A stretch of DNA of 64,000 nucleotides, taken from contig CALHND010000005.1 in the NCBI GenBank assembly GCA_938034875.1, positions 160,385-224,384 on the forward strand, in the 5' to 3' direction. The notes beneath the pieces were generated by a model. That model searched no databases and was not told where the DNA came from. It saw nothing but the letters and a program-made list of their open reading frames with translations. Origin of the DNA: an uncultured Clostridia bacterium (GTDB lineage Bacteria > Bacillota > Clostridia > Oscillospirales > Acutalibacteraceae). The translations under genes and the position numbers were made by a program. This document shows, in pieces, positions 5,710 through 32,707 of the stretch (the stretch's first letter is position 1; each line of letters starts with the position of its first letter).

Positions 5710-7539
5710 TTGGCTGATAAAAGACTTTCTCGACTGCTTGCAAAGGCACGGAGACTGCCGCTGTCCCCCGGCGTATATATAATGAAAAACAGCTCCGGCA
5801 AAATAATATATATCGGAAAAGCGAAAAAGCTGCAAAACCGAGTCAGCCAATATTTTGGCACGCAAAATCGCCATGCTGAAAAGGTGCGGCAAATGGTCGC
5901 TAATGTTGACGATTTTGATTATATTGTGTGCGACAGTGAGTTTGAAGCGTTGGTGCTGGAATGTTCGCTGATAAAGCAGAATATGCCCAAATACAATATT
6001 TTACTGAAGGACGCAAAGGGTTTTCACTACATTCGTGTGACCCCTCCCCCGTGGACCACTATAAAAGCGGCAAAAATGATCAAAGATGATGGTGCACAAT
6101 ATCTTGGACCGTATTATTCATCCTATGTTGTAAAACATTCGGTCGACACTGCGCTAAAAGCATTTAAGTTACCGCAATGCAATAAAACAGCCGCCGATTT
6201 TTCACGCAGGAATCATGCTCGACCATGTCTTAATTATCACATCGGTCAGTGCTCTGCACCCTGCTGCGGAAAAATCAAACAGTCAGCATATGATGAAGCC
6301 GCCGCTTCCGCAGTTGAATTTTTAATAAAGGGAAGCAACGATACTGTAAAAATACTGACTGAGCAAATGAATCAAGCCGCAGAAAACCTTGAATTTGAGC
6401 GTGCGGCTCGGTTGCGTGACCGTATAAATGCGCTCAAAAGCATGAGCGAGAGGCAAAAAGTAGTTGAATCGACCGTTGCCGAGCAGGATATTATTGCGCT
6501 GGCTAATTCATATGAAAAATCATGCGTTGAATTGTTCCGTTTTCGTGGTGGTCTGCTTACCGACAGAGAAAATTTCTTTTTTGACAGCTATGACAGTCCC
6601 GAACATATGCGCTACGAGTTTATAACACAGTTTTATTCGGGCGCAGGGGAAATACCACGCCAAATCACCATTGACGGTGAGGTCGCAGACCACGAACTGA
6701 TAGAGCGTTTTTTAACAGAAAAGCTTGGTAAAAAGGTAACTGTTGCAATTCCCCAGCGAGGTGAACAGGCTAAACTGGTTGCAATGTGCCATGAAAACGC
6801 CGCTGAACATTTAGCGGACAAGCTGGGTAGACGCGGCCACGAAACAGCCGCACTTGAGGAAATTGCACGTTTGCTTGGGCTTGCTACTCCACCGCGCATA
6901 ATTGAATCATACGATATTTCGCACACCGCCGGCAGCGACATTGTTGCCGGAATGGTTGTTTTTCGTGATGGTGCGCCTTTAAAAAGCGCTTATCGTAAAT
7001 TTACGATCAAATCTCTTGCAAATCAAGATGACTGTGCCGCAATGGCAGAGGTAATTACACGGCGATTTGAGGAATATAAAAAGGGCGAGGACGATTCATT
7101 TTCGGTACTGCCTGATTTAATACTGCTTGACGGAGGCAAAGGTCAGGTAGATGCCGTCAACACCGTTTTTATGCAAATGGGCATAAATGTGCCGCTTTTC
7201 GGCATGGTAAAAGACGATAAGCACCGTACTCGTGCCATAGTTTCAACAAATGGCGAAATTGCACTTAAATCAACACGTGCCGCATACACTTTTGTCTCTA
7301 CAATTCAGGAGGAAGTGCACCGATTTGCGATCAGCTTCCACCGAAAAAAGCAAAGCGCAAAAATAGGTTCCACTCTGACAAAAATTGAAGGCGTTGGTGA
7401 CGTTCGTGCAAAAGCGCTGCTGCGTCATTTCGGCACGATTGAAAACGTAAAACACGCCGAAATAGAAGATATTATAAAAGTTAAAGGCATGAATTCAACA
7501 GTTGCAAAAGCGATTTTTGAACATTTTCATAAAAAGTAA
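5710..7539 (+). CDS. uvrC: excinuclease ABC subunit C
   Basis: GIY-YIG motif (GVYIMKNSSGKIIYIGKAKKLQNRV), UvrBC-interaction region, and C-terminal RNaseH-like/HhH domains. 609 aa. Apparent TTG start with GGAGGTG RBS. Confidence 0.9.
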   Translation: MADKRLSRLLAKARRLPLSPGVYIMKNSSGKIIYIGKAKKLQNRVSQYFGTQNRHAEKVRQMVANVDDFDYIVCDSEFEALVLECSLIKQNMPKYNILLKDAKGFHYIRVTPPPWTTIKAAKMIKDDGAQYLGPYYSSYVVKHSVDTALKAFKLPQCNKTAADFSRRNHARPCLNYHIGQCSAPCCGKIKQSAYDEAAASAVEFLIKGSNDTVKILTEQMNQAAENLEFERAARLRDRINALKSMSERQKVVESTVAEQDIIALANSYEKSCVELFRFRGGLLTDRENFFFDSYDSPEHMRYEFITQFYSGAGEIPRQITIDGEVADHELIERFLTEKLGKKVTVAIPQRGEQAKLVAMCHENAAEHLADKLGRRGHETAALEEIARLLGLATPPRIIESYDISHTAGSDIVAGMVVFRDGAPLKSAYRKFTIKSLANQDDCAAMAEVITRRFEEYKKGEDDSFSVLPDLILLDGGKGQVDAVNTVFMQMGINVPLFGMVKDDKHRTRAIVSTNGEIALKSTRAAYTFVSTIQEEVHRFAISFHRKKQSAKIGSTLTKIEGVGDVRAKALLRHFGTIENVKHAEIEDIIKVKGMNSTVAKAIFEHFHKK

Positions 7540-7616
7540 ATTAAGTTGCTTACACATTAAAAAATGATTTAAGATGCCACATACAATATTTAATTTTAAA
7601 ATTTGCATATTTAAAA

Positions 7617-7650
7617 AGACCCGACATCAGATGCTGTCAGGTCTTTTTTT
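7617..7650. terminator. bidirectional rho-independent terminator between uvrC(+) and the DHHW gene(-)
   Basis: AAAAAGACCcGACAtcagatgcTGTCaGGTCTTTTTTT: a stem flanked by an A-run and a T-run. Confidence 0.55.
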
Positions 7651-7672
7651 GTATAATGCTCAATTAGATTTT

Positions 7673-8773
7673 TTACTTCATAGTAACACTGTTGTTCAGA
7701 ACGAGGGTGCTGTAAAGGAATAAAACATCTGCGTTTTCAAAATCAACATAATTTCCGATAAGCTCGCTGGAAATATAACGGATGTCAATCAACGTAATCT
7801 CGGCGTAACCCTCTGTAAGCAACGGCGCAATGCTGCTGCCAAAAGAATCCCTAAAAATAATCAATTTTTTGTCGGTTTTTGCATTTGCGTTTTTAATATT
7901 TATTAGTGACTTTGATCCCGAAAGATACATCTCATAAGGGTCTCTTCCGTTTGCCTTTTCCATGTCATAAACAGGAATATTAGTTTCTGTCTCAAAGTCG
8001 TAAACTTGACAGCCGTCAATAGTGTTGCTGGTCATATAATACATCTGTTCAGATGGAAGCGGCAGCGCCGACTGTCCGTAATACACACCGTAAAATGGGT
8101 TATCAAGCAGATTTGTGGTGTACTTACCGCTGATTGTTGCGCCCATCTCTGAGGCAAGCTTTTGAGCTACATCAACTATTTTTTCCTGACGCCAATGAGT
8201 GTCGGTTTTATAATAATCCTCAAGCTCAAGGCAATCGAAAATGTCGATGTACTGCATATATTCTGTCCTGTCTTTTAGATAACTGACGAACTTTTCGTAA
8301 TCGATTGACGGATAGCCGTTTTGGTTTGCCATAAAGTAATTTTTGTCGGGTATAATCGAAAAATACACATTTGTACCGTCGATGTTTAAATATTTTTCGT
8401 AAATACGCTTAAATTTAGCCAGCGCATTATCAAGCGATTCGGTATTCATGGGATATTCGATTTTTGACAAATATCCGTCATTTATATAAATATTATTCAT
8501 GTCCTTTTGTCCGAAAAGGTAGAATGCAGACAGCGCTTTCAGTCGTCTGAACGAATCTCTTAGCGGGAATTGGTCGGTGGTATAACTTTCGAAATCCTGC
8601 ATGAAATCGCCGCTAAAAATTTCATCCACGCTAACTTCCGGCATTGTTGCAAGCGGGCGTCTTTCGCTTTCGGACATAGCATCTGCCGGCTTTAAATAAC
8701 ACCAAGTCGAAAATACAAAGAAAAATACCGCCGCCGACAACACAGTTATAATGTTTTTTATTTTTGTTGACAT
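7673..8773 (-). CDS. DHHW family protein (DltD/AlgX-like accessory protein of an MBOAT acyltransferase)
   Basis: N-terminal TM segment and a YYKTDTHW (DHHW-type) motif. It lies immediately downstream of an MBOAT gene. Confidence 0.75.
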   Translation of the reverse strand: MSTKIKNIITVLSAAVFFFVFSTWCYLKPADAMSESERRPLATMPEVSVDEIFSGDFMQDFESYTTDQFPLRDSFRRLKALSAFYLFGQKDMNNIYINDGYLSKIEYPMNTESLDNALAKFKRIYEKYLNIDGTNVYFSIIPDKNYFMANQNGYPSIDYEKFVSYLKDRTEYMQYIDIFDCLELEDYYKTDTHWRQEKIVDVAQKLASEMGATISGKYTTNLLDNPFYGVYYGQSALPLPSEQMYYMTSNTIDGCQVYDFETETNIPVYDMEKANGRDPYEMYLSGSKSLINIKNANAKTDKKLIIFRDSFGSSIAPLLTEGYAEITLIDIRYISSELIGNYVDFENADVLFLYSTLVLNNSVTMK

Positions 8774-17277: not shown

Positions 17278-19350
17278 TTAACCTATTTGAATATTCCAAC
17301 CAGCGAGGTGGCGGTCTAACATAACGCCGTCCCAGTCGGTTATTTCGCCATCGCCGTCAATATCCAATGCATCAATCACACTAATATCAACATCCCAGCC
17401 TGCTAAATATCGTGCCAGCACAACGCCGTCCCAGTCGGTTATTACACCGTCGCTGTCAACGTCGCCCAATTCGCACATCGGCTGTCCGCACACATCACAA
17501 ATGTCGTCATCACCATAAATATGACCGGTTTCTCTTTCAAAACTGCACTCATTACAAGTGGCATCACAGTCATTATCAAAGGTATGACCTATTGTACCCG
17601 TTTTTTCCCAACCGCATTCGTTACAGGTGCTATCAAAGCAGTCAGTATACGAATGCTCATCAGCGCATGTATTATAATGCCAAGTAGCATTTATTAAATT
17701 ATCGTTGTAACCATAACAACAAATCTCTTCTCTATCCTCTTCAGAACCGACGTACCATACATCAGTGAGATTTGTACAGTCCGAAAATGCTGATTCGCCA
17801 ATAAAAGTTGCATTAACGGGAAGTTGAATTTTTGTGAGGCTGAAGCATCTAGAAAATGTATAATTTCCGATAATTGTAACCTTATTGGGTATTACGATGC
17901 TTGTGATACTCTGGCAGCCGAAAAACGCTCGACTACCCAAGCTGGTTAAACTGTCGGAAAGGGTTACATTTGTAAGTTCTGCGCAGGCTTCGAACGCTTC
18001 GTCACCGATACTTGTTACGCTATCGGGAATGGCAATTTCGGTAAGACCTGTACATTCAAGAAATGCTCTGTTACCGATACTTGTTACGCTATCGGGAATA
18101 GTAATGCTTGTTATTTCGTAGTTGACAAAAAAAGCGTATTCACCAATGCTCGTCACGGTGCTGTCGGTAGGAATAGTGCTGTTTTTGCAACCTGCAACTA
18201 AAATTTTATTTTCAGTGTCGATAATGCAGTTCCCTGAGCTGTGATATACCGTGTTGCCGCTGTCTACCGTCATGCTTTCGAGCCCGACACAGCCGCCAAA
18301 AGCATTTTCGCCAATATTTGTTACGCTATCGGGAATAGTAATTCCTTCAAGCTCTTCTGCATAGACAAAGGCATAGTCTGCTATCGTTAATGTGCTGTCT
18401 TTTACAATATATGTATCGCAAATAGAGTACTTTGCACTAATTAAATGACTACCAATATACAAAACATCGTTTTCCCAATTATCTTCGTTGAGATAATATT
18501 CGGTATCCAAAAACGCGTCAATTCCAATGTTTGTTACGCTATCGGGAATAGTAATCCCTTTAAGCTCTTCTACATAGTAAAAGGCAAAGTCTGCTATCGT
18601 CAATGTGCCGTCTTTTACAACATATGTATCGCAATCAGAGTACTTTGCACTAATTAAATGGCTTCCAATATATAAGATATCGTTTTCCCAATTATCTTCG
18701 TTGAGATAATATCCGGTGCCCGAAAAAGCCGACATTTCGATGCTAGTTACGCTGTCGGTAAGGGTAATGCTTTCAAGTGCAGAACACTCCGCAAAAGCAT
18801 AAGCTCCGATGCTTGTTACACTATCGGGAATAATGATACTTGTGAGGTTTATGCAAAATTCAAATGCACCACGTTCAATGCTTGTTACGCCATTAGGAAT
18901 TGTTACGCTGGTAAGATCTTCGCAACCAACAAACATAAGTTCTCCTATGCTTGTTACGCCATCAGGAATTGTTGCGCTGGTAAGGCTGTCGCACCAACCA
19001 AAAGCAATGTCACCTATGCTTGTTACGCTGTCGGGAATGGTAATGCTTGTGATGCTCTCACAATACAAAAATGCACCTTTACCTATGCTCGTCACACCAT
19101 CAGGAATTGTTACGCTAGTAAGGTTTGTGCATTGAAAAAATGCTCTAACACCTATACTTGTTACCTCATAACCGCCTAATGTTGAAGGGATTGTCACATT
19201 ACCACTGATGTCTGTGCTAACATTCATAATGGTTGCTTTTCCATCAATTATAATGTATTTGTAATACCCTTCCGTTTCCGCGTTTGCGGTTAGGCTCACC
19301 GTCCCCATAACCACCACCAACGTCAAAATAATTGCTAGGATTCTTTTCAA
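17278..19350 (-). CDS. BspA-type leucine-rich repeat protein with a C-terminal type-I dockerin
   Basis: Signal peptide. About 20 LRR units of ~23 aa ([22 protein letters not shown]). A Cys-rich segment. The C-terminus is [24 protein letters not shown] ... [24 protein letters not shown], a duplicated Ca-binding dockerin loop. Confidence 0.8.
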   Translation of the reverse strand: MKRILAIILTLVVVMGTVSLTANAETEGYYKYIIIDGKATIMNVSTDISGNVTIPSTLGGYEVTSIGVRAFFQCTNLTSVTIPDGVTSIGKGAFLYCESITSITIPDSVTSIGDIAFGWCDSLTSATIPDGVTSIGELMFVGCEDLTSVTIPNGVTSIERGAFEFCINLTSIIIPDSVTSIGAYAFAECSALESITLTDSVTSIEMSAFSGTGYYLNEDNWENDILYIGSHLISAKYSDCDTYVVKDGTLTIADFAFYYVEELKGITIPDSVTNIGIDAFLDTEYYLNEDNWENDVLYIGSHLISAKYSICDTYIVKDSTLTIADYAFVYAEELEGITIPDSVTNIGENAFGGCVGLESMTVDSGNTVYHSSGNCIIDTENKILVAGCKNSTIPTDSTVTSIGEYAFFVNYEITSITIPDSVTSIGNRAFLECTGLTEIAIPDSVTSIGDEAFEACAELTNVTLSDSLTSLGSRAFFGCQSITSIVIPNKVTIIGNYTFSRCFSLTKIQLPVNATFIGESAFSDCTNLTDVWYVGSEEDREEICCYGYNDNLINATWHYNTCADEHSYTDCFDSTCNECGWEKTGTIGHTFDNDCDATCNECSFERETGHIYGDDDICDVCGQPMCELGDVDSDGVITDWDGVVLARYLAGWDVDISVIDALDIDGDGEITDWDGVMLDRHLAGWNIQIG
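17700..19250. repeat. tandem ~69-bp coding repeats (LRR units)
   Basis: The recurrent string cctatgcttgttacgct.tcgggaat.gt.atgcttgt appears many times. Confidence 0.7.
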
Positions 19351-19367
19351 TTTATACTACCTCTCCC

Positions 19368-21557
19368 TTATGCTATTTTTATATCCCAACCGGCGAGATA
19401 GCGGTCTAACATAACGCCGTCCCAGTCGGTTATTTCACCGTCTCCGTCAATATCCAATGCTTTCAATTCCGAAATTTCTACATCCCATCCTGCTAAATAT
19501 CGTGCCAGCATAACGCCGTCCCAGTCGGTTATTACACCGTCGCCGTCAACGTCGCCCAATATGTACTTTGTACGTCCGCATAAATCACAAATATCATCGT
19601 CGCCAAAATCGTGTTCAATTTCTCTTATTTCTCCGCATTTTTCGCAGCTGGGATCGCATACATCTTTGTATTCATGCTCGGTTTGTCTTTCATAACTACA
19701 TTCGTTACAATTAGGGTCGCAATCATTGTCAAATGTATGGTCGCTTACATCGCTTCTTACCCAGTCGCAATTCTCGCAAGTAGCGTCGTCACAACCCGTA
19801 TACGAATGCTCTGTTACACAGGTGTTATAATGCCATGTAACGGTTTCCAGCTCGTTATTATCCGAAAAGATAGATATTTTTTGTCTATCACTTTGAGAAC
19901 CGGTATACCACAAATCAGTCAAACTGGTGCATTCAAGAAATGCACCTTCACCTATGCTTGTTACGCCCTTTCCAATTATTACGTTGGTAAGGCCTGTGCA
20001 TTCAAAAAATGCTCCTTCGCCTATGCTTGTTACGCTGTCAGGAATTGTGATGCCTGTAAGGCCCTCGCAATATTCAAACATACAGTTTCCTATGCTTTTT
20101 ACGCCATTAGAAATTGTTACACTGGTAAGAGATGTACAGCCAGAAAACACACAATCACCTATGCTTGTTACATTGGCGGGAATAGTGACGCTTTTAAGCT
20201 GAGTGCACATGGCAAATGCACCTTCCCCTATGCTTGTTACGCTATTAGGAATTGTGATGCTTGTAAGGCTCTCGCAAAATTCAAACATACCGTTTCCTAT
20301 GCTTTTTATGCCATTAGAAATTGTTGCACTGGTAAGAGCTATACAGCAAGAAAACACATAATCACCCATGCTTGTTACATTGGCTGGAATAGTGATGCTT
20401 TTAAGCTGAGTGCAGCTGGCAAATGCACCTTCCCCTATGCTTGTTACGCTGTCGGGAATTGTGATGCTTGTAAGGCTCTCGCAACCGACAAATGCACCAT
20501 AACCTATGTTTTTTACGCCATTAGAAATTGTTACACTGGTAAGAGCAGTACATAAGGCAAACGCAGAATCACCTATGCTTGTTACGCTATCGGGGATTGT
20601 TATGCTTGTAAGGCTCACGCAACCGCCAAATGCACCTTCGCCTATGCTTGTTACGCCATTAGGAATTGTTGCACTGGTAAGTGCTGTACATAAAGCAAAC
20701 GCATAATCACCTATACTTGTTACACTATTAGGAATTGTGACACTTTTAAGACTTTCGCAACCATAAAACGCAAATGTATTTATACTTGTCACTTTGTTCG
20801 GAATGGTGACGCTGGTAAGAGCATAACACTCAGCAAACGCACCTTCGCCTAAATATGTTACACTGTTAGGGATTGTGGCACTTTTAAGACTTTCGCATAA
20901 ATTAAACGCATAATCACCTATACTTGTCACGCTGTTCGGAATGGTGATGCTGGTGAAAGCACACTCACTAAACGCAGCATAGCCTATATATGTTACACTG
21001 TTAGGGATTGTAACACTTTTAAGACCTTTGCATAAATCAAATGCATAATCACCTATACTTTTTACACTGCTCGGAATGGTGACGCTGGTAAGAGCAGAAC
21101 ACTCAGCAAACACACCTTCGCTTAAATTTGTTACACTGTTAGGGATTGTGGCACTTTTAAGACTTTCGCATAAAGCAAACGCATAATCACCTATACTTTT
21201 TACACTGCTTGGAATGGTGACGCTGGCGAGATTACTACACCCAGCAAACGCATAATCACCTATATATGTCACACTGTTAGGAATAGTGATGCTGGTGATA
21301 TTATAACGATTACCAAACGCAGCTTCGCCTATGCTTGTTACCGTATTGCTGCCGAATTTTGAAGGAATTGATACATTGCCGCTTATGGCTTCGTTAACAT
21401 ACACAATAGTTGCTTTTGAGTTAGCCACTGTATATAAATAATCTCCACTGGAATAATATTCGCTGGTATCCGCACTCGCGCTTAGTCCGGCCATCCCAAA
21501 AGGCAAAATGGAAACAACCAATACAAACGCTAAAACAATTGATAAAAATTTCTTCAT
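19368..21557 (-). CDS. BspA-type leucine-rich repeat protein with a C-terminal type-I dockerin (paralog)
   Basis: Same architecture as the neighbouring gene; 729 aa. Dockerin segments [24 protein letters not shown] and [24 protein letters not shown]. Confidence 0.8.
19900..21420. repeat. tandem ~69-bp coding repeats (LRR units), paralogous array
   Basis: The same unit as in 17700-19250, repeated more than 20 times. Confidence 0.7.
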
Positions 21558-24035: not shown

Positions 24036-24380
24036 AAAGCGACTTATGTGTGACCGCCTGCTTTAGTGAGACGGTTTGCAGAATCATACTCGTATTCAGA
24101 GTAACCATTGGACAACATATTACCATCCGAATCGTGAGATACTGTCTTGCCGTTGAATACTGCCAGGCGGTTATTGGTATCATAGCCAAAACGGTCATTA
24201 GGTGCATCGGTAATATTACCTGCGGCATCGTAGGTGTAATTTTCTTCAGATACTACACAATCACAGCTAAGGCTGATAATCTGACGCTTTGTTACCTTGT
24301 TTAAATTATTATCATTTTAACATATTTTGGTATTTTTTTTGCAAGATAAAAAAGAACGGTTGGATCTTACACCAACCGTT
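24036..24380 (-). repeat. RHS junction repeat, copy A (YD-coding segment + leader + terminator hairpin)
   Basis: Near-identical to 29140-29405 (copy C) over ~250 nt except a ~30-nt divergent patch. The minus-strand reading ...YTYDAAGNITDAPNDRFGYD...SNGYSEYEYDSANRLTKAGGHT hits a stop at ~24047. Confidence 0.75.
24047..24290 (-). pseudogene. truncated RHS/YD-repeat fragment (relic cassette head)
   Basis: About 65 codons of YD-repeat sequence with no start codon upstream (in-frame TAA in the leader) and a premature end. Confidence 0.6.
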
Positions 24381-24453
24381 CTAGTTAGAAAGGAGTCTTT
24401 TAAAACGAAAACTTGAATAATTTTTGTTAACACAAAAGAACCGTACCTCTGTG

Positions 24454-25095
24454 TTAAGTGTCAAAGGCTATATGAAGTTTTTTTATATAATATAGTTTAA
24501 TTGCATCAAAAACTCCTAATATAACAAACACCGATGACAGAAGTATCAATAGTGCACTACAAAGCAGCAATGCAACATTTTGATCCATAGCAACATTTAA
24601 TTTTTTTAAAATTATATATGTAGCAATTGATATTGATCCTGATATATAAGCTAATGAACCATTTTTACTTTTAGTTGACGTTGCTTTTTCCTTTTTTATG
24701 TATTTCAAAGTAAATAGTATTGTCAGTGTCGCCACTAAAATGAGTGGTAAAGATAACAAAATTAAGCTTAATTGCACTTTGTTATACATAGAATACAATA
24801 TCATTGCAAATAGTAAATAATTAATAGCAGTAAACACATTTAAACATATACTAGATTTAATTGTACGAATAACAGTATACTTTTTTGTTAGAATAACAAT
24901 TAAAATAAATGAAAAAAATATTGAAAACGCTATTACAGCAGAGAACACTTTGTAAACATGGCCTAATATTATACCACATACAATACTAATAATTGGAAAA
25001 AAATTGACCAAAAATAAATTTAAACGCATTTTTCTAGGCTCTTTATCCAAGGTGTTTTCAATAAAAACTCTAATGCTATCTTCCAACTCAATCAC
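24454..25095 (-). CDS. polytopic membrane protein, putative immunity protein
   Basis: 213 aa, ~6 TM helices, very AT-rich. Lies directly downstream of a Gly-zipper peptide ORF and ends at the conserved terminator hairpin. Confidence 0.4.
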   Translation of the reverse strand: MIELEDSIRVFIENTLDKEPRKMRLNLFLVNFFPIISIVCGIILGHVYKVFSAVIAFSIFFSFILIVILTKKYTVIRTIKSSICLNVFTAINYLLFAMILYSMYNKVQLSLILLSLPLILVATLTILFTLKYIKKEKATSTKSKNGSLAYISGSISIATYIILKKLNVAMDQNVALLLCSALLILLSSVFVILGVFDAIKLYYIKKLHIAFDT

Positions 25096-25097
25096 TC

Positions 25098-25298
25098 CTA
25101 ATCAAACCATCCGCGTATTCCGTCAACAACCCAATCTAATCCTTCTTTACCCCAGTCAACTACTGTTTTTCCATTGATCTTTAAGACATCGGAAAGCGCA
25201 TAACTTACTAAGCCTACTCCTACACCAACGGCAATACCAATCGCTGTTCCCACACCAGGAGTTGCTACTGTTCCGATGGCTCCAAAGATTTTTGTCAA
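25098..25298 (-). CDS. glycine-zipper peptide (putative displaced pore-forming toxin tip or bacteriocin-like)
   Basis: GAIGTVATPGVGTAIGIAVGVGVGLVSYAL contains repeated GxxxG/AxxxG motifs. It resembles the C-terminal tip of the RHS module at 27805-28100. The start is non-ATG (TTG). Confidence 0.35.
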   Translation of the reverse strand: MTKIFGAIGTVATPGVGTAIGIAVGVGVGLVSYALSDVLKINGKTVVDWGKEGLDWVVDGIRGWFD

Positions 25299-25344
25299 GA
25301 CCCAGAACTGCCCGCTGTTTTAGAACCGTTCCTGTGTATTCCGA

Positions 25345-25707
25345 TTACTGCCGAACCTGTTCAGCTGGGTTAATTCTAATATACCAATTATCATCAATTA
25401 ATGTGACATCAAAATCTTGACCAATATAATTCAATAAATAAGCAAGTGATTCTCCCTCTTCTTCTACGTAAAACATTACTACTTCATGATTATTGCATAG
25501 AAAAACAAAAAATAATGAACTTTGTGTTTTCCCTATTTCATATGGTCGACATTGATTTAGAAAAAGACAAATAGTTTCATATTCTTTTTCAGTAAGGTAC
25601 TCATCTCTTTTAGGAATTTCTGGACTAAAAATTGATTTTCTATTTATAGAATAAAGGTAATCGAATATTTCGTTATCTTTTAGTATACTAGTAATTTCTG
25701 TGAACAA
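25345..25707 (-). CDS. small cytoplasmic protein, putative immunity/orphan cassette ORF
   Basis: 120-aa AT-rich ORF inside the degenerate cassette B; no recognisable motif. Confidence 0.3.
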   Translation of the reverse strand: MFTEITSILKDNEIFDYLYSINRKSIFSPEIPKRDEYLTEKEYETICLFLNQCRPYEIGKTQSSLFFVFLCNNHEVVMFYVEEEGESLAYLLNYIGQDFDVTLIDDNWYIRINPAEQVRQ

Positions 25708-25848
25708 TTCTCTTTTGTTAAAAAAACTTCTTCTACAGAATCAGGGGTACTGTAAACTTGGGGATCATACTCATCTTCATGAAAACATGAACATAATACA
25801 AAACTTATAAATATCAATATTACAATAACAAATATAATTATTTTGCTT

Positions 25849-26052
25849 CTATGGGAGTGTTCTGTTGATACCAGGTTTGGCGTTTGGATAGTCATCATAA
25901 TAGAAATCTATTCCTTTCTTTATTGCGATATGGTCTTTCTCTGAATCTCCATAATATATTGAAGCATCTCGCACTTCTTCCGAAAAAATGTTTTTTAATC
26001 CTTTCGAAGGAACTCCTCCACCCCAGTACAATGTAACATCGCCAATACCCAT
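25849..26052 (-). pseudogene. degenerate toxin-tip fragment of cassette B
   Basis: Reading out of the junction frame gives ...GNITYGYLGSAMGIGDVTLYWGGGVPSKGLK... A frame-shifting indel relative to copies A and C places a stop 11 codons after the junction. Confidence 0.35.
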
Positions 26053-26072
26053 TGCGCTACCTAAATATCCAT

Positions 26073-26250
26073 AGGTAATATTGCCGGCCGCTTCGAGGTG
26101 TAATTTTCTTCAGATACTACACAATCACAGCTAAGGCTGATAATCTGACGCTTTGTTACCTTGTTTAAATTATTATCATTTTAACATATTTTGGTATTTT
26201 CTGCAAGATAAAAAAGAACGGTTGGTTTTTAATCCAACCGTTCTTTTTTC
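26073..26250 (-). repeat. RHS junction repeat, copy B (shortened)
   Basis: Shares ggtgtaattttcttcagatactacacaatcacagctaaggctgataatctgacgctttgttaccttgtttaaattattatcattttaacatattttggtattttctgcaagataaaaaagaacggttgg with copy A, including the terminator hairpin. Confidence 0.75.
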
Positions 26251-26344
26251 AAATTGTTACAAAGGAGACTCATTCCCTGTCTCCCATTCGTTTTGATATC
26301 CACATCATTCGTAAACGCAATTTATTTGTTTCTCAAAGCATAAT

Positions 26345-27676
26345 TTATTTATTCGTTGTTTTAGGAACAATTTCAATATAATCAACAAAAAACAAATATT
26401 TATTATTATTCACCTTAAGCTCTCTAACACGATATGCATCAGCATCTGCAATTTCACTTTGCGTTAAAACAAATCCTAAATAATATTCGCTTACTGGGCT
26501 TTTTAAACAATAATACTCCCCTAAATCAAGGTCTTCCTCTATCGAAAGAATGTCAACAGTTTGACTATTGTCACTGAATACAATTTCAACCAGATGAATA
26601 CAATTATTTTCAACTATCAATCCAAGTGAATCCACAAAAATCTCATCTTTGTACAAATTAAAATAATCTAATATTATAGCATCTTCATAATGCAGAGTTA
26701 CTGCACGACTTAATTTTTTTTCAAAATCACTGATGTCACTATCATTTTTTACATTCAAAAAGCAACCTACCACTGAAAAAACAACAACTATAACAATGCC
26801 AATTCTTTTTACCAATTTACTTTTTTTTATTCTTTTTTCAGTTTTATTATCATATATTTGAAAATTTGTATCTGGAAGAACTTCTACATCAAATAAGGAA
26901 ACCGGCTGTTCCTGTTCTATTGCCATAAGATATTTTTTAGAAAGGGTTGCATAGTCCATCCGAGGCGCAATGGAGATAATATTTTCAAAAAAGCTTTTTG
27001 CCTCCTTAAAATCTCCATTTTCATAACAAGCTATTGCATAAAAAAAATCATTTTGCAGTTTTCGCAGTTTTATATACCACACATTAGGTTTAAGTCCCAA
27101 ATTTCTTTCCTTGCATACAATTTTACACGCTTCGTAATTTTTATCCAAAAAATACCTATAATAGCTCCATACAGAATTAGATGAACTCAGGAAAGATTTT
27201 GATGGATAGTTTTCTTTATATTCATCATATTTTTTTAATAGAATTTGCAGTTTTTCAAAATCTCTTAATTCAAAATATATTAGAGCTAAAATACCTAAAT
27301 ATGAATACTTGCCCATTATTGAACTCTTTTTTTTTCGCATTTGAGTAGTTGCAATATTAACAGTTGTTTGATAATCACCCGTGCACATGGCAGCATTAAT
27401 ACGATAATCTAATGGCGGTATAAAAAATTTTCCTTTTATTAGTTCCTGAAATCCTATTGCATCGAGCTTTACAAACAAAACAGACGCTATTGTTTTATTA
27501 GCAACTATTCTTATAAGAAGTTTTACAGGAAAATAGAGTGCTGTACAAAACAATATAGACCAAACATTAGGATAAACAAATATACACGGAATAACTATGG
27601 CTATATAACATATTAAAATAAGAATACATTTGAAATAATATTGGCGCAATATGGCTTTTTGTGATGATGATTTCAT
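26345..27676 (-). CDS. membrane protein, putative immunity protein for the adjacent RHS toxin tip
   Basis: 443 aa. Two N-terminal TM helices and a mid-protein TM. AT-rich. Lies immediately downstream of the toxin module and is followed by the conserved hairpin. Confidence 0.45.
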   Translation of the reverse strand: MKSSSQKAILRQYYFKCILILICYIAIVIPCIFVYPNVWSILFCTALYFPVKLLIRIVANKTIASVLFVKLDAIGFQELIKGKFFIPPLDYRINAAMCTGDYQTTVNIATTQMRKKKSSIMGKYSYLGILALIYFELRDFEKLQILLKKYDEYKENYPSKSFLSSSNSVWSYYRYFLDKNYEACKIVCKERNLGLKPNVWYIKLRKLQNDFFYAIACYENGDFKEAKSFFENIISIAPRMDYATLSKKYLMAIEQEQPVSLFDVEVLPDTNFQIYDNKTEKRIKKSKLVKRIGIVIVVVFSVVGCFLNVKNDSDISDFEKKLSRAVTLHYEDAIILDYFNLYKDEIFVDSLGLIVENNCIHLVEIVFSDNSQTVDILSIEEDLDLGEYYCLKSPVSEYYLGFVLTQSEIADADAYRVRELKVNNNKYLFFVDYIEIVPKTTNK

Positions 27677-27804
27677 TATGAATCTCCTATCAAAACGAAT
27701 AAATATTTATGTACACATCCCATCAACAAGAGAGTGATGGGATGTGTTTTACAATTTAATTTTCACGATTGAAATCTATACCGTAAACAACTGGACAAAT
27801 TTAT

Positions 27805-29187
27805 CTATCCAGCGGTTGCGGTTGCACCAGTACTTGTTATCCAATTCCAAAAACTTGATGCCCAAGCGGAAATTTGATTACCCACGGTTGTGAGAGATTG
27901 CCCCGCATTCGCCCATGCTGTTGCTGCAGCTCCAATAGCAATAGGGTCATTCCAAGCTCCCATTCCGCAAGTTGCAATAGTTTCAGCCACTGCTACTCCT
28001 GCAACTGCTGAAAGTCCTACAGCAATTCCTAAATTTAAGAATATACTGCCCCAATCGGTAGACTCTTCTTTTCCAGGAACAGTGCCTGTCTCAGATTTAG
28101 AACCCTTGTTTTGATTATTTTTATTATTCCAAGAAGTCATCTCAACACTCGTTGACACTGAATTACCAAAGTTATCCGATGTATTAATGGTATAACCAAC
28201 AGACAAAGACGAGCCAGGAACCCCAGAAATATATACTGCCACTGTAGAATATCCATCAATATCAGCAGAGTATTCTATTTTAATTCCATCATCACTAACC
28301 GACATACTTCCATTCGACATATCAAATGAAATGCTACCCAGAATATCTATTTGATCAGAAACCACTGCAGATATTTCAGCATTTCCTAGTCCACTGCTCG
28401 CCTGTACAGAAAAACTTCCCTTACCATTCATTCCTATCAGGAACGAGAAACTCATCCCATTAGAAACACTGAAAATATTTTTAAAACTCATAAGTTGATC
28501 TAATGTACTTGCTAACAAATTGGTTGCAATTTTCAAATCATTTGGAGATTCAATATTACCCAAAATTTTATATAAAGAGTCAAAATCAACCGATCCTCTC
28601 TCCTCAGCCGCCAACCCAAACGGGTCAACATAGGAAACGGGGTTGCCGTTGACGTAGGAATAACGGTTAAGCGATGTGGAATTGGATATTTCACCGTGAA
28701 GAATATCGGCATTGATGAAACGGCGCATTACAGGACTGTAGTAACGAGCTCGCATATAATACAAGCCGTTTTTATCGGTAATTACACCGTCACGACCGTT
28801 GTAACCGAAGATTACGAAGCTATTACCTGTTCTGGAAATAAGCTTACCATAGGTATCATACTTAAAGGTATCGGTAATGTTGCCGTTGATATCGGTTATA
28901 GCTACTGTACTGCCTCTATAATCGAAATGGTAGGTCTTAAAACAACCTTCCTTTTCTTCGCCAATAAGACCGTGACCGTAAACATACTTGGTTGTAATAT
29001 CATTTGTAGTCTTTTGTAACAACTGACTTAACTTACAGTTGGTATTATAGGTATAAGTAGTATCAGCATCAGAGCAAAGATTGCGGATTCGTACATCCTC
29101 TGCATTATAAGTATATGTGTGGCCATCTGCTTTGATTAATCGATTTGCAGAATCATACTCGTATTCAGAGTAACCATTGGACAACAT
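27805..29187 (-). CDS. orphan RHS/YD-repeat C-terminal module with a variable toxin tip
   Basis: YD repeats (YTYNAEDVRI, YGHGLIGEE, YHFDYRGS) run into the RHS core end PVSYVDPFGL at ~28626. A ~270-aa variable C-terminal domain follows, rich in Ser/Gly, with a Gly-zipper-like end (GIAVGLSAVAGVAVAETIATCGMGAW...IAIGAAATAWANAG). The coding frame extends upstream to ~29400 with no start codon: the leader contains an in-frame TAA. Confidence 0.65.
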   Translation of the reverse strand: MLSNGYSEYEYDSANRLIKADGHTYTYNAEDVRIRNLCSDADTTYTYNTNCKLSQLLQKTTNDITTKYVYGHGLIGEEKEGCFKTYHFDYRGSTVAITDINGNITDTFKYDTYGKLISRTGNSFVIFGYNGRDGVITDKNGLYYMRARYYSPVMRRFINADILHGEISNSTSLNRYSYVNGNPVSYVDPFGLAAEERGSVDFDSLYKILGNIESPNDLKIATNLLASTLDQLMSFKNIFSVSNGMSFSFLIGMNGKGSFSVQASSGLGNAEISAVVSDQIDILGSISFDMSNGSMSVSDDGIKIEYSADIDGYSTVAVYISGVPGSSLSVGYTINTSDNFGNSVSTSVEMTSWNNKNNQNKGSKSETGTVPGKEESTDWGSIFLNLGIAVGLSAVAGVAVAETIATCGMGAWNDPIAIGAAATAWANAGQSLTTVGNQISAWASSFWNWITSTGATATAG

Positions 29188-29405
29188 ATTGCCATCTGAA
29201 TCGTAAGATACGGTCTTGCCGTTAAACCGTATGAGTTTGTTATAGAAATCATAGCCAAAACGGTCATTAGGTGCATCGGTAATATTACCTGCGGCATCGT
29301 AGGTGTAATTTTCTTCAGATACTACACAATCACAGCTAAGGCTGATAATCTGACGCTTTGTTACCTTGTTTAAATTATTATCATTTTAACATATTTTGGT
29401 ATTTT
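29140..29405 (-). repeat. RHS junction repeat, copy C (head of the intact cassette)
   Basis: See copy A. Here the repeat is embedded in continuous YD coding sequence. Confidence 0.75.
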
Positions 29406-29585
29406 CTGTAAAGTGTTTTTCCTCGACAATTCTCGACAATAGGTCGTAAGCATACTCAAAGCCCGTAATCACGACACCACCCGATGTTTTTTCCACCGTA
29501 GAGGTAATTCGCTGTTTATTATCATAAACTGTAGTTGTAACACTACCGTCAGGCTTGGTTGCCCCTACTACCCTGTTATTTTCAT
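29405..29585 (-). pseudogene. internal RHS YD-repeat fragment
   Basis: The minus strand reads KDENNRVVGATKPDGSVTTTVYDNKQRITSTVEKTSGGVVITGFEYAYDLLSRIVEEKHFTENTKIC*. A stop codon sits immediately upstream. Confidence 0.55.
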
Positions 29586-30644
29586 CTTTTCAGAAAAGCT
29601 GAACTGCTTAATTTCTCAACTTCATCGACTTGCACAACTTTTCTCAAAAAGCAGTAAAACATTTGCAACAGTTATCTTAGATAAAGCAAATAATGAAAAG
29701 TGAAAAGCAGTAGGCATAAAAACCTACTTCTTTTTATTTGGCAGAGACGGAGAGTCTGATACAAAATGCACAAGGTATTCATGCTTGCGTTTGATAAGTA
29801 AACACCCTCGGAATTTTCTATTTGTTCCGCGTGCAAGGGTGAACATTTCTTATTGACGATGATAAATGGTTTCTGTGATTCGGGTGTTCCTGTGAAACAA
29901 ATGCTCGAACATTATTTTGCCGTTACGCCTGTCACCGTATGAGCCCGTGAAAACGGACTTTCTCTCTACATAATATATGGTTAAAGAATTATTTTTTAAT
30001 TTATATGAAAACTATTGACATTCATACCAATGTGTGCCATTGTAAATTTATGTATTTAAAAGGCGAAAGTTCTTATGGTTCCCTATTTTCCGCGCACTAT
30101 CGCAGATAGAAGGAAAAAAAGCCCTTCCGAATTCTTATTAGATGTTTTTTATGTTACAAAAGGGCTTATGTTATTACAGGTTAAAGAAATAACCGGCATT
30201 GGAACCCCATTAATACAAAACCGGGCAACCAGAGGCTGGATACGAAAACCTATTGAAAAAGGTATTCCGTCGACCATCTGGCAAAGATTATGCTTTTCGA
30301 TATGTTGCGGGGAGTTTTACAAATTAAAAATATAGCCTGTATTATACCTATATCAACGGACAGACAAATGACAGGGACGATGACATAATTCTCGAATTGC
30401 AGCTGTATGTTTACATATACGAAATACTTCACAGCGTGGATATAAAACGATTCTGTCTGGTGGAAAATTAGAGGCTATTATTAAACAAGCCGTTAAAAGC
30501 TATAAACAACCATACAATGGTGCTTTTAAGAAATTGGTGTCTGGCTTACCCATTATTTTAATTTATTATGCTTCTGCTATTAAAAAAGCAAAAGCTGATA
30601 GAATGTTAAACTAGAGAAATATTTATGAAGGGAGGTAGAGCTAT

Positions 30645-31298
30645 ATGTTGGAATGGTGGAACAGTCTTACGCTATTTGGTCAGATTTATGCAGCAATCGC
30701 TATACCTGCAACCATTATTTTAGTGCTTCAGTCCCTTTTGTTGTTTTTAGATTTAGGCTTTGACCATGACGCGGACTTTAGCGGAGGAGATCACGACGTT
30801 GGTGAGGGAGATCATGGTTTTGACGGTGACGACGGTCTTTCCCTATTTACTATAAGGGGAATAGTGGCATTTTTCTCAATAGGTGGATGGACAGGACTTG
30901 CTTGTGAAATGGCTGGATCAGGTGCAATTTTATCCATACTGATTGCTTTTGGTGCAGGAACTATAGCATTAGTCGGCATTGCTGTTTTGTTTAAGTATTC
31001 CTTAAAGCTTCAGAGTCAGGGCAATTTGGATATTCATAATGCTTTAGATAAAGTGGGAAAGGTATATATTCCTATACCCGGTAACAGAAACGGAATGGGC
31101 AAAATATCCGTTATGTTTCAGGCAAAATACACGGAACTTGACGCTGTTACCGAAGACAAGCAAAGCTTAAAAACTGGTGAGATGGCAAAAATAACAGCCT
31201 TAATTGACGAACAGACTGTTTTGGTTACCCGCAAAATTTCTAACAAAGAAGATTCCCGTAAGACATCATTAAATGAAATTGGAGGTATCTCAAAATGA
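30645..31298 (+). CDS. NfeD-like membrane protein (flotillin-associated, YuaF-type)
   Basis: N-terminal TM helices, an acidic DHD-rich loop and a C-terminal OB-like soluble domain. The stop overlaps the flotillin start (ATGA). Confidence 0.65.
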   Translation: MLEWWNSLTLFGQIYAAIAIPATIILVLQSLLLFLDLGFDHDADFSGGDHDVGEGDHGFDGDDGLSLFTIRGIVAFFSIGGWTGLACEMAGSGAILSILIAFGAGTIALVGIAVLFKYSLKLQSQGNLDIHNALDKVGKVYIPIPGNRNGMGKISVMFQAKYTELDAVTEDKQSLKTGEMAKITALIDEQTVLVTRKISNKEDSRKTSLNEIGGISK

Positions 31299-32707
31299 AC
31301 CCAGTAATTATCGTGTTAATATCCGTGGCGGCGGTTTTAATCTTTACAACCTTTGTAGTAATTCTATCAAGGTACCGTAAATGTCCATCCGACAAAATTT
31401 TGGTGGTTTACGGAAAAATAGGCACCAATAAGGACGGTACATACAGAAGTGCAAAATGTATTCACGGCGGTGCGGCCTTTATAGTACCTGTGCTTCAATC
31501 CTATGAATACATGGATTTAACACCAATGTCCATATCCGTTGACTTAAAAAATGCCCTTTCAAAGCAAAATATCCGTATTGATGTCCCTTCAAGATTTACC
31601 GTTGGTATTTCGGTTGAGCAGGGAGTCATGCAAAATGCGGCAGAGCGCCTTTTGGGCTTAAAGCTTACGGAAATTCAGGAGCTGGCAAAGGATATTATCT
31701 TCGGTCAGCTAAGACTAATTATTGCGACAATGGATATTGAGGAAATCAATACCGACCGTGACAAGTTTTTGGCTGCCGTGTCTAATAACGTAGAGTCAGA
31801 GCTTAAGAAGATTGGTCTTCGCCTTATAAACGTTAACGTAACCGATATTACCGACGAATCGGGATATATCGTTGCGTTAGGTAAGGAAGCGGCGGCTAAG
31901 GCCATTAACGATGCAAAAATTTCTGTTGCAGAGGCTGACCGTCAGGGTGCTATTGGTGAAGCCAACGCTAAAAGAGACCAGAGAATTTCCGTATCCCTTG
32001 CCGATTCAGCAGCTATACAGGGTGAAAACGAAGCTAGGGCACTGGTCGCAGACTCAAACGCAACCTTGAATGAAAAGCAGGCCGAAGCCCTTCGTCGTTC
32101 AACCGCATCGGAAAAAATTCAAGCCGCCAAAGCGTTGCTTGAAGCATATTCTGCAGAGCAGGAAGCGGAAAAGGCGCGTTTTGCTCGCGAACAGGCCACC
32201 TTGGAAGCCGATATTATTGTTAAGGCCGAAATAGATAAGAGAAGAAAAGAAGTGGAGGCCGAAGCCGAAGCCGAACAGCTAAGACGCCGCGCAAGAGGTG
32301 AAGCCGATGCCATATTCGCAAAAATGGAAGCCGAAGCGCGTGGTTTACAGGAAATTATGACCAAGCAAGCACTCGGCCTTTCGAAAATTGTGGAAGCTGC
32401 AGGCGGAAATGCCAACGATGCCGTTAAGCTTATGATCGCGGAGAAAATTGAAGATCTTGTTAAAACTCAGGTTGAAGCAATTAAGAATATCAAGATTGAC
32501 AAGGTCACCGTTTGGGATAGTATGGGCGGCAAGGATGGTACTCCGGCAACAGCAAACTTTCTGTCGGGTATGATGAAGTCAATTCCTCCGATGAACGAAA
32601 TGTTCAATATGGCAGGAATGGAGCTTCCCGAATTCTTGGGAAAGAATAAAAACGAAATTACAGAAATGATAGAAAACGAGATAATTGCGGAAGCAAAACA
32701 CGAATAA
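31295..32707 (+). CDS. flotillin family protein (SPFH/band-7; FloT/YuaG-like)
   Basis: N-terminal membrane hairpin and SPFH domain, followed by long Ala/Glu-rich coiled-coil EA repeats (EAEAEAEQLRRRARGEADAI). 470 aa. Confidence 0.85.
   Translation: MNPVIIVLISVAAVLIFTTFVVILSRYRKCPSDKILVVYGKIGTNKDGTYRSAKCIHGGAAFIVPVLQSYEYMDLTPMSISVDLKNALSKQNIRIDVPSRFTVGISVEQGVMQNAAERLLGLKLTEIQELAKDIIFGQLRLIIATMDIEEINTDRDKFLAAVSNNVESELKKIGLRLINVNVTDITDESGYIVALGKEAAAKAINDAKISVAEADRQGAIGEANAKRDQRISVSLADSAAIQGENEARALVADSNATLNEKQAEALRRSTASEKIQAAKALLEAYSAEQEAEKARFAREQATLEADIIVKAEIDKRRKEVEAEAEAEQLRRRARGEADAIFAKMEAEARGLQEIMTKQALGLSKIVEAAGGNANDAVKLMIAEKIEDLVKTQVEAIKNIKIDKVTVWDSMGGKDGTPATANFLSGMMKSIPPMNEMFNMAGMELPEFLGKNKNEITEMIENEIIAEAKHE

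Follow-up and report, generated by a model that had tools for sequence, protein, structure and literature searches.

We analysed a window of 64 kb, the whole stretch of DNA considered here and the frame of reference for all positions given below. It forms part of a ~292 kb contig (CALHND010000005.1), which was assembled from human-gut metagenomes and was seen in several sources. Our subject is an island of RHS-derived sequence, read throughout on the minus strand (24045-29592), in which a truncated RHS core with a toxin tip, candidate immunity genes and the remains of further cassettes follow one another. We consider it likely that this island represents the orphan tail of a WapA-like RHS locus from an uncultured gut Firmicute of the Oscillospirales type, and that it consists of promoter-headed cassettes whose immunity genes are expressed. 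An earlier note on this DNA had described an RHS/YD polymorphic-toxin island of orphan-type cassettes, a description that matches to the PF05593 and TIGR03696 profiles uphold.

Results

In translation, the minus-strand frame that ends at 27805 carries RHS sequence from ~29592, where a core fragment that we call copy C begins (Table 1). The N-terminal part of this fragment contains YD/RHS repeats (Pfam RHS_repeat PF05593, 30.8 bits with a cut-off of 22; TIGR01643, 22.5 bits with a cut-off of 15.8), and its last 83 residues before the tip are covered by the NCBIfam profile Rhs_assc_core (TIGR03696, 66.1 bits, cut-off 32.5). The latter match ends at NGNPVSYVDPFGL (NPVSYVDPFGL, nt 28626-28612), a PxxxxDPxGL-type motif after which the variable tip follows. 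The RHS assignment, which the earlier note had made dependent on such profile matches, therefore holds. Over 325 aa, copy C shares 78% identity with the core of an RHS protein of 1894 aa from locus L086 (loci used for comparison are numbered with an L). Only ~330 aa of core are present, and a shell of >1000 aa with an N-terminal trafficking part was not found; the 5' part and the start of the rhs gene are gone and a core homologous to full-length genes is kept, as in an orphan module. The earlier note had placed an intact RHS module with YD repeats and core end at 27805-29400. The module is real, its homology begins farther upstream than was thought, and intact it is not: an in-frame TAA (29388-29386), the single interruption of the frame, lies inside the junction repeat described below, and the longest open reading frame (ORF) encodes 460 aa from an ATG that, on inspection of the sequence, has no clear Shine-Dalgarno motif ahead of it. 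Upstream of the terminator-like hairpin T0, no minus-strand gene is left.

Table 1. Features of the RHS island, in the order in which they are read on the minus strand.
Feature	Position in window	Strand	Basis and remarks
Terminator-like hairpin T0	29709-29728	-	Terminator scan; RHS homology begins ~115 nt downstream
5'-truncated RHS core fragment, copy C	28612-29592	-	Translation; YD repeats, then NPVSYVDPFGL
Promoter-like head of cassette C	29383-29412	-	Promoter scan; 10/12 matches with TG
Junction block J_C	29301-29404	-	Exact repeat
Longest ORF, 460 aa (P0051)	27805-29187	-	ATG at 29187; last 192 aa of core plus tip
Toxin tip CT1, 268 aa	27808-28611	-	Directly after NPVSYVDPFGL
13-bp stem-loop	27713-27747	-	Sequence; between tip stop codon and ribosome-binding site of imm443
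Candidate immunity gene imm443, 443 aa	26345-27676	-	Intact; AGGAG ribosome-binding site
Intrinsic terminator hairpin T1 and T-run, closing cassette C	26215-26244	-	Terminator scan, sequence
Promoter-like head of cassette B	26178-26206	-	TTGCAG, 17-nt spacer, TG-extended TAAAAT
Junction block J_B	26096-26199	-	Exact repeat
Cassette B remnant	25849-26095	-	Sequence, translation
Lipoprotein-like candidate immunity gene of cassette B	25345-25898	-	Split over two frames (72-aa and 120-aa ORFs)
Gly-zipper 66-aa ORF	25098-25298	-	Remaining C-terminal end of a third tip
Multi-pass membrane protein, 210 aa from TTG	24454-25086	-	Intact; candidate immunity gene for the third tip
Intrinsic terminator hairpin T2	24353-24382	-	Terminator scan
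Cassette A	24045-24344	-	Head TTGCAA, 19-nt spacer, TAAAAT; junction J_A; ~190 nt of RHS core
Junction block J_A	24232-24335	-	Exact repeat

The tip, estimated earlier at ~270 aa and found to be 268 aa (28611-27808), belongs to a rare family of 34 cluster representatives among 1.8 billion, and every listed protein of the family has the match at its C-terminal end or close to it. In an AlphaFold model of CT1 built from 29 sequences (mean predicted local distance difference test score, pLDDT, 77), residues 1-165 form an alpha/beta domain that is modelled with confidence. A disordered linker comes next, and residues 186-259 form a hairpin of two long hydrophobic helices rich in Gly and Ala (pLDDT 60-70). 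CT1 had no sequence match in the PDB, a fold search returned generic helical matches only, and no homology to known glycine-zipper toxins was found. The model tentatively suggests that CT1 would most likely act on the membrane through its Gly/Ala-rich helical hairpin.

The membrane-protein gene that the earlier note had set in the immunity position appears well placed. A CT1-family tip and an imm443 homologue (437-441 aa) adjoin one another in three other loci (L085, L086 and L127), and because imm443 stands beside the same tip family in independent loci, the conserved adjacency fits a role as immunity partner of the CT1 family. The protein has predicted membrane helices at residues ~9-69 and 285-312, flanking a hydrophilic middle, and a weak TPR match was its only hit in Pfam and NCBIfam; its family comprises 49 proteins, which range from 289 to 458 aa and mostly measure 430-455 aa, without Pfam domains beyond an occasional weak TPR. 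The stem-loop between tip and imm443 is perfectly paired and without a clear T-run, and may be a processing or attenuation element.

Two further cassettes are headed, as the earlier note had recognized, by a junction that they have in common with copy C: a 104-nt block identical in all three copies, where shuffled sequences gave an expectation of 0. In copies A and B the junction lies directly 3' of a GC-rich hairpin with T-run (T2 and T1, respectively), and in copy C an extra 190 nt of RHS repeat sequence stands ahead of it, with the hairpin T0 farther up. The earlier note had allowed that the junction might be the end of an insertion sequence (IS) or an intron; both are ruled out, since relatives read through it as RHS protein, EEKxLA(E/D)NTK(M/I)CYTYD(N/S)L. 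Where relatives have TK[MI]CYTYD[NS]L, the window reads EEKHFTENTKIC*NDNNL (TKIC*NDNN). An Rfam scan of 21.5-31 kb gave only a sub-threshold miRNA match on the terminator hairpin, and the junction corresponded to no known RNA. Exact scans for the junction in a genome-contig and a metagenome-contig collection, neither of which holds the source species, gave 0 matches.

Cassette B is degenerate. A 1-nt deletion after the junction shifts the frame, one YD motif is kept and the other core sequence is deleted, and the cassette ends in ~75 aa of an unrelated tip remnant. The lipoprotein-like gene beside it, with a single hydrophobic leader, appears split in three-frame translation and is probably a pseudogene. 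Next comes the 66-aa Gly-zipper ORF, which shares 33% identity (E = 1e-7) with residues 349-407 of an orphan RHS tip in L086 and whose stop codon overlaps the ribosome-binding site of the 210-aa membrane gene. Given this homology and overlap, the ORF is the last piece of a third tip, whose junction, core and most of the tip are deleted and whose candidate immunity gene is whole. Cassette A breaks off ~190 nt into the core, beside a convergent tlpA-like gene. Pfam and NCBIfam searches with the immunity candidates and small ORFs returned weak TPR matches only. The 64 kb hold two intact candidate immunity genes and no main RHS gene. The earlier note had called the island AT-richer than its flanks, which is true of the immunity genes and cassette interiors (GC content 0.26-0.29); the RHS core parts (0.37-0.40) lie close to the flanks (0.39-0.43).

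Each junction coincides with a promoter-like head, which we compared with the sigma-A promoter consensus of Gram-positive bacteria. In head C, TTTACA (29412-29407) is followed after an 18-nt spacer by a TG-extended -10 element, TAAAAT (29388-29383), which overlaps the in-frame stop. Main and orphan genes of different loci carry CTTGCA(A/G)-N17-(T)RTGTTATACTTATGA at this place, invariant down to codon choice (written out, CTTGCAa-N17-TRTGTTATACT), and of the two conserved blocks, which stand 17 nt apart, one corresponds to a -35 hexamer (TTGCAa) and the other to a TRTG-extended -10 (TGTTATACT). We aligned the codons of 8 non-redundant RHS genes (63-80% nt identity) and scored the fraction of same-residue pairs that used the same codon; this fraction was 0.93-0.94 over LA(D/E)NTKxCYT, with a mean of 0.49 and a next peak of 0.74. 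The motif thus lies in coding sequence and is conserved between main and orphan copies, as an internal promoter would be, and we infer that the junction spot is an extended -10 promoter. The second, weaker synonymous-site peak (0.74) falls on the codons for NITDTFKYDTYG (window ~28890-28850, minus strand), near the point where many short orphans fuse head to core.

In most orphan cassettes examined in other genomes, the same head stands directly after a terminator hairpin and is followed by different points of the core (CYTYD, YGKLISRTG, RTG, YNGRDG or DGVITD). A single fixed 5' boundary for all orphans was ruled out, as they fall into classes at query positions 136-264, 287-299, 332-346 and ~470-515. 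We classed 22 distinct sequences as heads (21 once L096 turned out to be an in-ORF site), a list whose underlying regular expression presupposes the motif, which the tblastn-anchored extractions do not. In the orphans among them, terminator, head and a TAT come in this order and are joined to differing points of the core. Across these 22 sequences the -35 hexamer was TTGCAA in 15, TTGCAG in 3, TTGCGG in 2, and TTGACA and TTGAAT in 1 each, and the -10 hexamer was TATACT in 14, TATATT in 5, TATAAT in 2 and TACAAT in 1. Where coding constraint is gone, the hexamers shift toward consensus (TTGACA, TATAAT, and TAAAAT in the window), and one L086 orphan has lost ~90 nt of junction coding sequence and kept TTGAAA-17-TATATT. 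The window version of the head, TGTTAAAAT, is one step nearer TATAAT, and this change toward consensus creates the in-frame stop codon. Retention of the head despite core loss, together with drift toward consensus, is what a promoter predicts and a mere homology boundary does not. The cassettes, which the earlier note had taken to be silent, are headed right after terminators by a promoter motif conserved at the nucleotide level; they look expressed for this reason and are probably transcription units.

Could the head instead be a recombination signal by which mobile cassettes are marked out, much as in an integron? The breakpoint falls directly after TATACTTAT in many cassettes, and in L085 a gene for a 531-aa large serine recombinase (6000-7965; Resolvase, Recombinase and Zn_ribbon_recom domains) sits inside the head of the third orphan, between a -35-like TTGAAA and the resumed RHS core, a single case. 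No recombinase was found in the window island, L003, L086 or L127, and the genes called in the window between 17.8 and 39.2 kb include neither a recombinase nor a mobile element. Two conserved blocks around a spacer of fixed 17-nt length and variable sequence match -35 and TG/-10 elements and change toward the sigma-A consensus, and microhomology between YD motifs, which are rich in Tyr codons, can explain where the downstream breakpoints fall. We regard this alternative as highly improbable and retain the promoter interpretation.

A different promoter-like sequence, TTGCAT-N17-TATACT with TTGACAT ahead, was seen in L106, L110, L116, L117, L120, L123 and L125. These loci hold a distantly related RHS family, with ~25-30% identity to the core, and in L106, L110, L116 and L117 the sequence lies roughly 6 kb upstream of the RHS match.

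The three junction copies share the same four substitutions, the stop included, which were found in no relative. Copies A and C have an exact run of 158 nt with mosaic identity beyond it, and the core sequence beside the junction differs between them. Across 21,383 nt, two other assemblies of the same contig (L001 and L002) show just 5 differences from the window. These fall without exception within the 33 nt of 24219-24251, in or just after junction copy A, where the window is identical to copy C. The differences are confined to copy A, so the perfect three-way identity is specific to this assembly or strain, and copy A owes its identity either to a recent gene-conversion tract or to assembler cross-talk between repeats. 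Because identity is mosaic and polymorphism confined to copy A, recombination between junction copies appears plausible.

These patterns also bear on whether the island is simply neutral wreckage of a dead RHS locus, with the head a leftover of coding sequence and the junction identity due to recent duplication or assembly artefact. The in-frame stop, the frameshifts, the internal deletions, the 3'-truncated last copy and a polymorphism placed exactly within a repeat would all be expected of such a ruin. What they do not account for are imm443 and the 210-aa membrane gene, both full length with good ribosome-binding sites, or a head that is kept in 21 independent cassettes despite variable core deletion and drifts toward the promoter consensus, not away from it. 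Moreover, another organism has, on 11 contigs, an island with the same tip-immunity pair and likewise no full-length RHS gene in the 8 kb around it. We therefore hold decay without function to be quite improbable as an account of the whole island, and maintain that at least its immunity genes are likely to be expressed.

A full-length RHS gene is absent from the 64 kb, as the earlier note had stated: tblastn with the 1673-aa RHS of L003 matched only 28366-29586 and 24059-24337. Among 5.8 billion proteins, in a database that takes in proteins from assemblies holding this contig, no core was >85% identical except ORF P0051 itself; the best other core was 85% identical, and the best 120 protein relatives of the core were all 272-571 aa long. 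In L003 and L086 a main rhs gene precedes the orphans and points the same way as they do, an arrangement that the window lacks; these orphans have a common start point directly after a terminator. L003 comes from a different organism, with RHS parts 71-83% identical in DNA and no other match to the window, and encodes a 1673-aa RHS protein with its immunity gene, followed by two orphan cassettes. In L086, the 1894-aa RHS protein (Big_2, DUF6531 and RHS repeats) ends in a CT1-family tip (75% identity over 418 aligned residues), a gene for a 437-aa imm443 homologue follows, and two orphan cassettes come after it. In L085 the tip-immunity pair lies inside an orphan array. In L127 (6150-11040; also L126, L128 and L129), which represents another organism on 11 contigs, the same tip and a 441-aa immunity protein are encoded, and the 8 kb to each side contain no called full-length RHS gene. 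Behind this pair stands a short orphan with a head, which corresponds to L003 in both its tip and its immunity gene.

The earlier note saw in the cassettes a silent reservoir, from which recombination at the junction or core would graft a tip and immunity pair onto a full-length rhs or wapA gene elsewhere in the genome. L003 and L086 do combine a main gene with orphans that have a common junction, mosaic identity and junction-confined polymorphism show recombination or conversion acting here, and orphan-to-main recombination has been documented in Salmonella (PMC3967940). However, with no main gene in the 64 kb, no core above 85% identity in the protein database, and a stop in the junction that leaves functional fusions only to crossovers downstream of 29386, the displacement of a main rhs tip loses its footing, and the conserved promoter head argues against silence. 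A role as reservoir is in our view unlikely; an orphan tail with expressed immunity genes agrees better with these observations.

Flanking genes indicate the neighbourhood into which the island is set. The nearest genomes by the flanking flotillin are metagenome-assembled genomes of uncultured Clostridia, Acutalibacter and Neglectibacter type (84-89% protein identity). Between 29600 and 30640 the earlier note had recognized relics only; this stretch holds an 86-aa ORF (30075-30335, plus strand) without a family match, which lies directly upstream of the nfeD-like and flotillin genes (30645-32707) in ~20 related genomes and is probably united with them in an operon of three genes. A flotillin synteny search found neither RHS nor ccdA/tlpA genes upstream of orf86-nfeD-flotillin in any of the ~20 related genomes. 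On the other side, two adjoining large genes (17278-21557, minus strand) code for proteins of 690 and 729 aa with leucine-rich repeats (LRR_5) and ends that resemble dockerins, and contain internal DNA repeats that are ~80% identical. LRR_5 genes also adjoin the RHS island in L126-L129.

Discussion

In the account that we favour, the full-length delivery gene is missing from the neighbourhood, and the island comprises one nearly complete cassette, the remains of at least two older ones and a stump. Each cassette would run from an intrinsic terminator into the head, in which the segment coding for LAENTKxCYTYD doubles as a sigma-A type promoter with extended -10. Transcription starting there would pass through a poorly translated or untranslated core and tip into an immunity gene with its own strong ribosome-binding site, and end at the next terminator. 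Unit C would thus express imm443, unit B would express the 210-aa membrane gene, which is intact, and the lipoprotein gene, which is broken, and unit A would be a stump. The island would mainly give immunity against RHS toxins fired by neighbours, with the delivery gene absent. The repeated heads and core pieces would remain substrates for homologous recombination and gene conversion, which would account for the identical junction copies, including their common stop codon.

Given that the 460-aa ORF has no convincing ribosome-binding site and that related orphans have no conserved start codon, the toxin parts are probably poorly translated or untranslated, and the immunity genes translated. 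The same evidence counts against a selfish module of toxin-antitoxin kind, in which the head would drive internal translation of the 460-aa fragment and of imm443 and the products would act inside the producer, an action described for main and orphan rhs elements in Salmonella. Such a module would suit an ORF that is open from its ATG to its natural stop with the immunity gene next to it, and main and orphan rhs genes of Salmonella provide a precedent of weak, non-canonical translation starts (PMC7043789). But ATG 29187 lacks a Shine-Dalgarno sequence, and related orphans fuse the head to many points of the core without a conserved start codon, which makes this explanation very unlikely beside that of transcribed cassettes whose immunity genes are translated.

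Several points weigh against our preferred account. Anatomy, homologies, conservation of the nucleotides and the adjacency of tip and immunity gene were observed; the promoter activity, like the immunity function and toxin activity that we ascribe to the island, is deduced. Hexamers that resemble promoter elements abound in this AT-rich region (49 found, 40.6 expected), and the nucleotide-level conservation could serve another purpose, such as a recombination site. In head A the spacer measures 19 nt and there is nothing for the head to drive, and head C lies ~1.7 kb upstream of imm443. The immunity gene of cassette B is frameshifted, and part of the island is plainly decaying. The perfect identity of the junctions could partly reflect assembler cross-talk, and a main rhs gene may lie elsewhere in the genome, as the genomic search covered the 64-kb window.

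Internal promoters within rhs genes have a precedent in Salmonella, where mapped promoters (P2A/P2B) in the region common to main and orphan rhs drive expression of the toxin C-terminus and immunity gene (PMC7043789). As in that case, the motif described here lies within conserved rhs coding sequence of main and orphan genes and is placed so as to serve a toxin C-terminus and an immunity gene. Unlike the Salmonella internal starts, which were mapped experimentally 89 nt upstream of the PxxxxDPxGL codons (PMC7043789), the -10 element at 29383 lies ~760 nt (255 codons) upstream of these codons at 28626 and is read from sequence, and the motif also marks the 5' edge of orphans, where it is kept when most of the core is deleted.

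The island further resembles the orphan rhs-CT/rhsI modules of enterobacteria, as described for Salmonella Typhimurium (PMC3967940), in its 5'-truncated core, variable tip and adjoining immunity gene, in the single orientation of the array, and in common repeats that permit recombination. It differs from them in lacking a main gene nearby, in having each cassette bounded by a terminator and conserved head, and in its setting in a gut anaerobe of Gram-positive type, in whose relatives the full-length proteins carry N-terminal Big_2 and DUF6531 parts and not parts linked to PAAR/VgrG of a type VI secretion system (T6SS). With the acquired interbacterial defence (AID) and rAID-1 islands of gut Bacteroidales (bioRxiv 10.1101/471110), the island shares a skewed GC content, repeated intergenic sequences and toxin-gene remnants, and, to judge from the 64 kb, it may also share their clusters of immunity genes kept without the matching weapon. 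Those islands are aimed at T6SS toxins, and a XerD-type recombinase or mobile elements often accompany them, whereas the present one is RHS-derived, has no recombinase and holds only two intact candidate immunity genes. CT1, finally, may resemble glycine-zipper membrane-depolarising toxins (Staphylococcus aureus EsxX, PMC12744356; ionophore toxins of contact-dependent inhibition, PMC11630599) in its Gly/Ala-rich hydrophobic C-terminus, modelled as helical, and in its pairing with a membrane-embedded immunity protein, here a predicted one; it differs from them in the absence of sequence or fold homology and in its additional 165-residue alpha/beta domain.

Orphan arrays and internal rhs promoters were thus already known, and the island as such is unremarkable. 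What is new here is a modest detail, namely a conserved head, probably a promoter, by which the cassettes in gut Firmicutes are defined. A broader proposal, which we put forward as a speculation that is open to considerable doubt, is that RHS modules of gut Clostridia are built as standard cassettes, with a terminator and an in-frame promoter, that go on expressing immunity after displacement, core loss and loss of the main gene. Where an island lacks a main gene, as it does here and in L127, it would then be a Gram-positive counterpart of the Bacteroidales defence islands, and the head would be a preferred crossover point at which cassettes pass from one array to another.

In our study, a rare tip family was tied to a family of 430-455-aa membrane proteins as its candidate immunity partners, and the ~35-nt head emerged as a precise putative regulatory element for a large RHS family in uncultured gut Firmicutes, one that marks the start of orphans. 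If the head is active, orphan cassettes would be expressed immunity units and not silent spare parts, and the presence of such a cassette in a gut metagenome would mean resistance, not necessarily attack.

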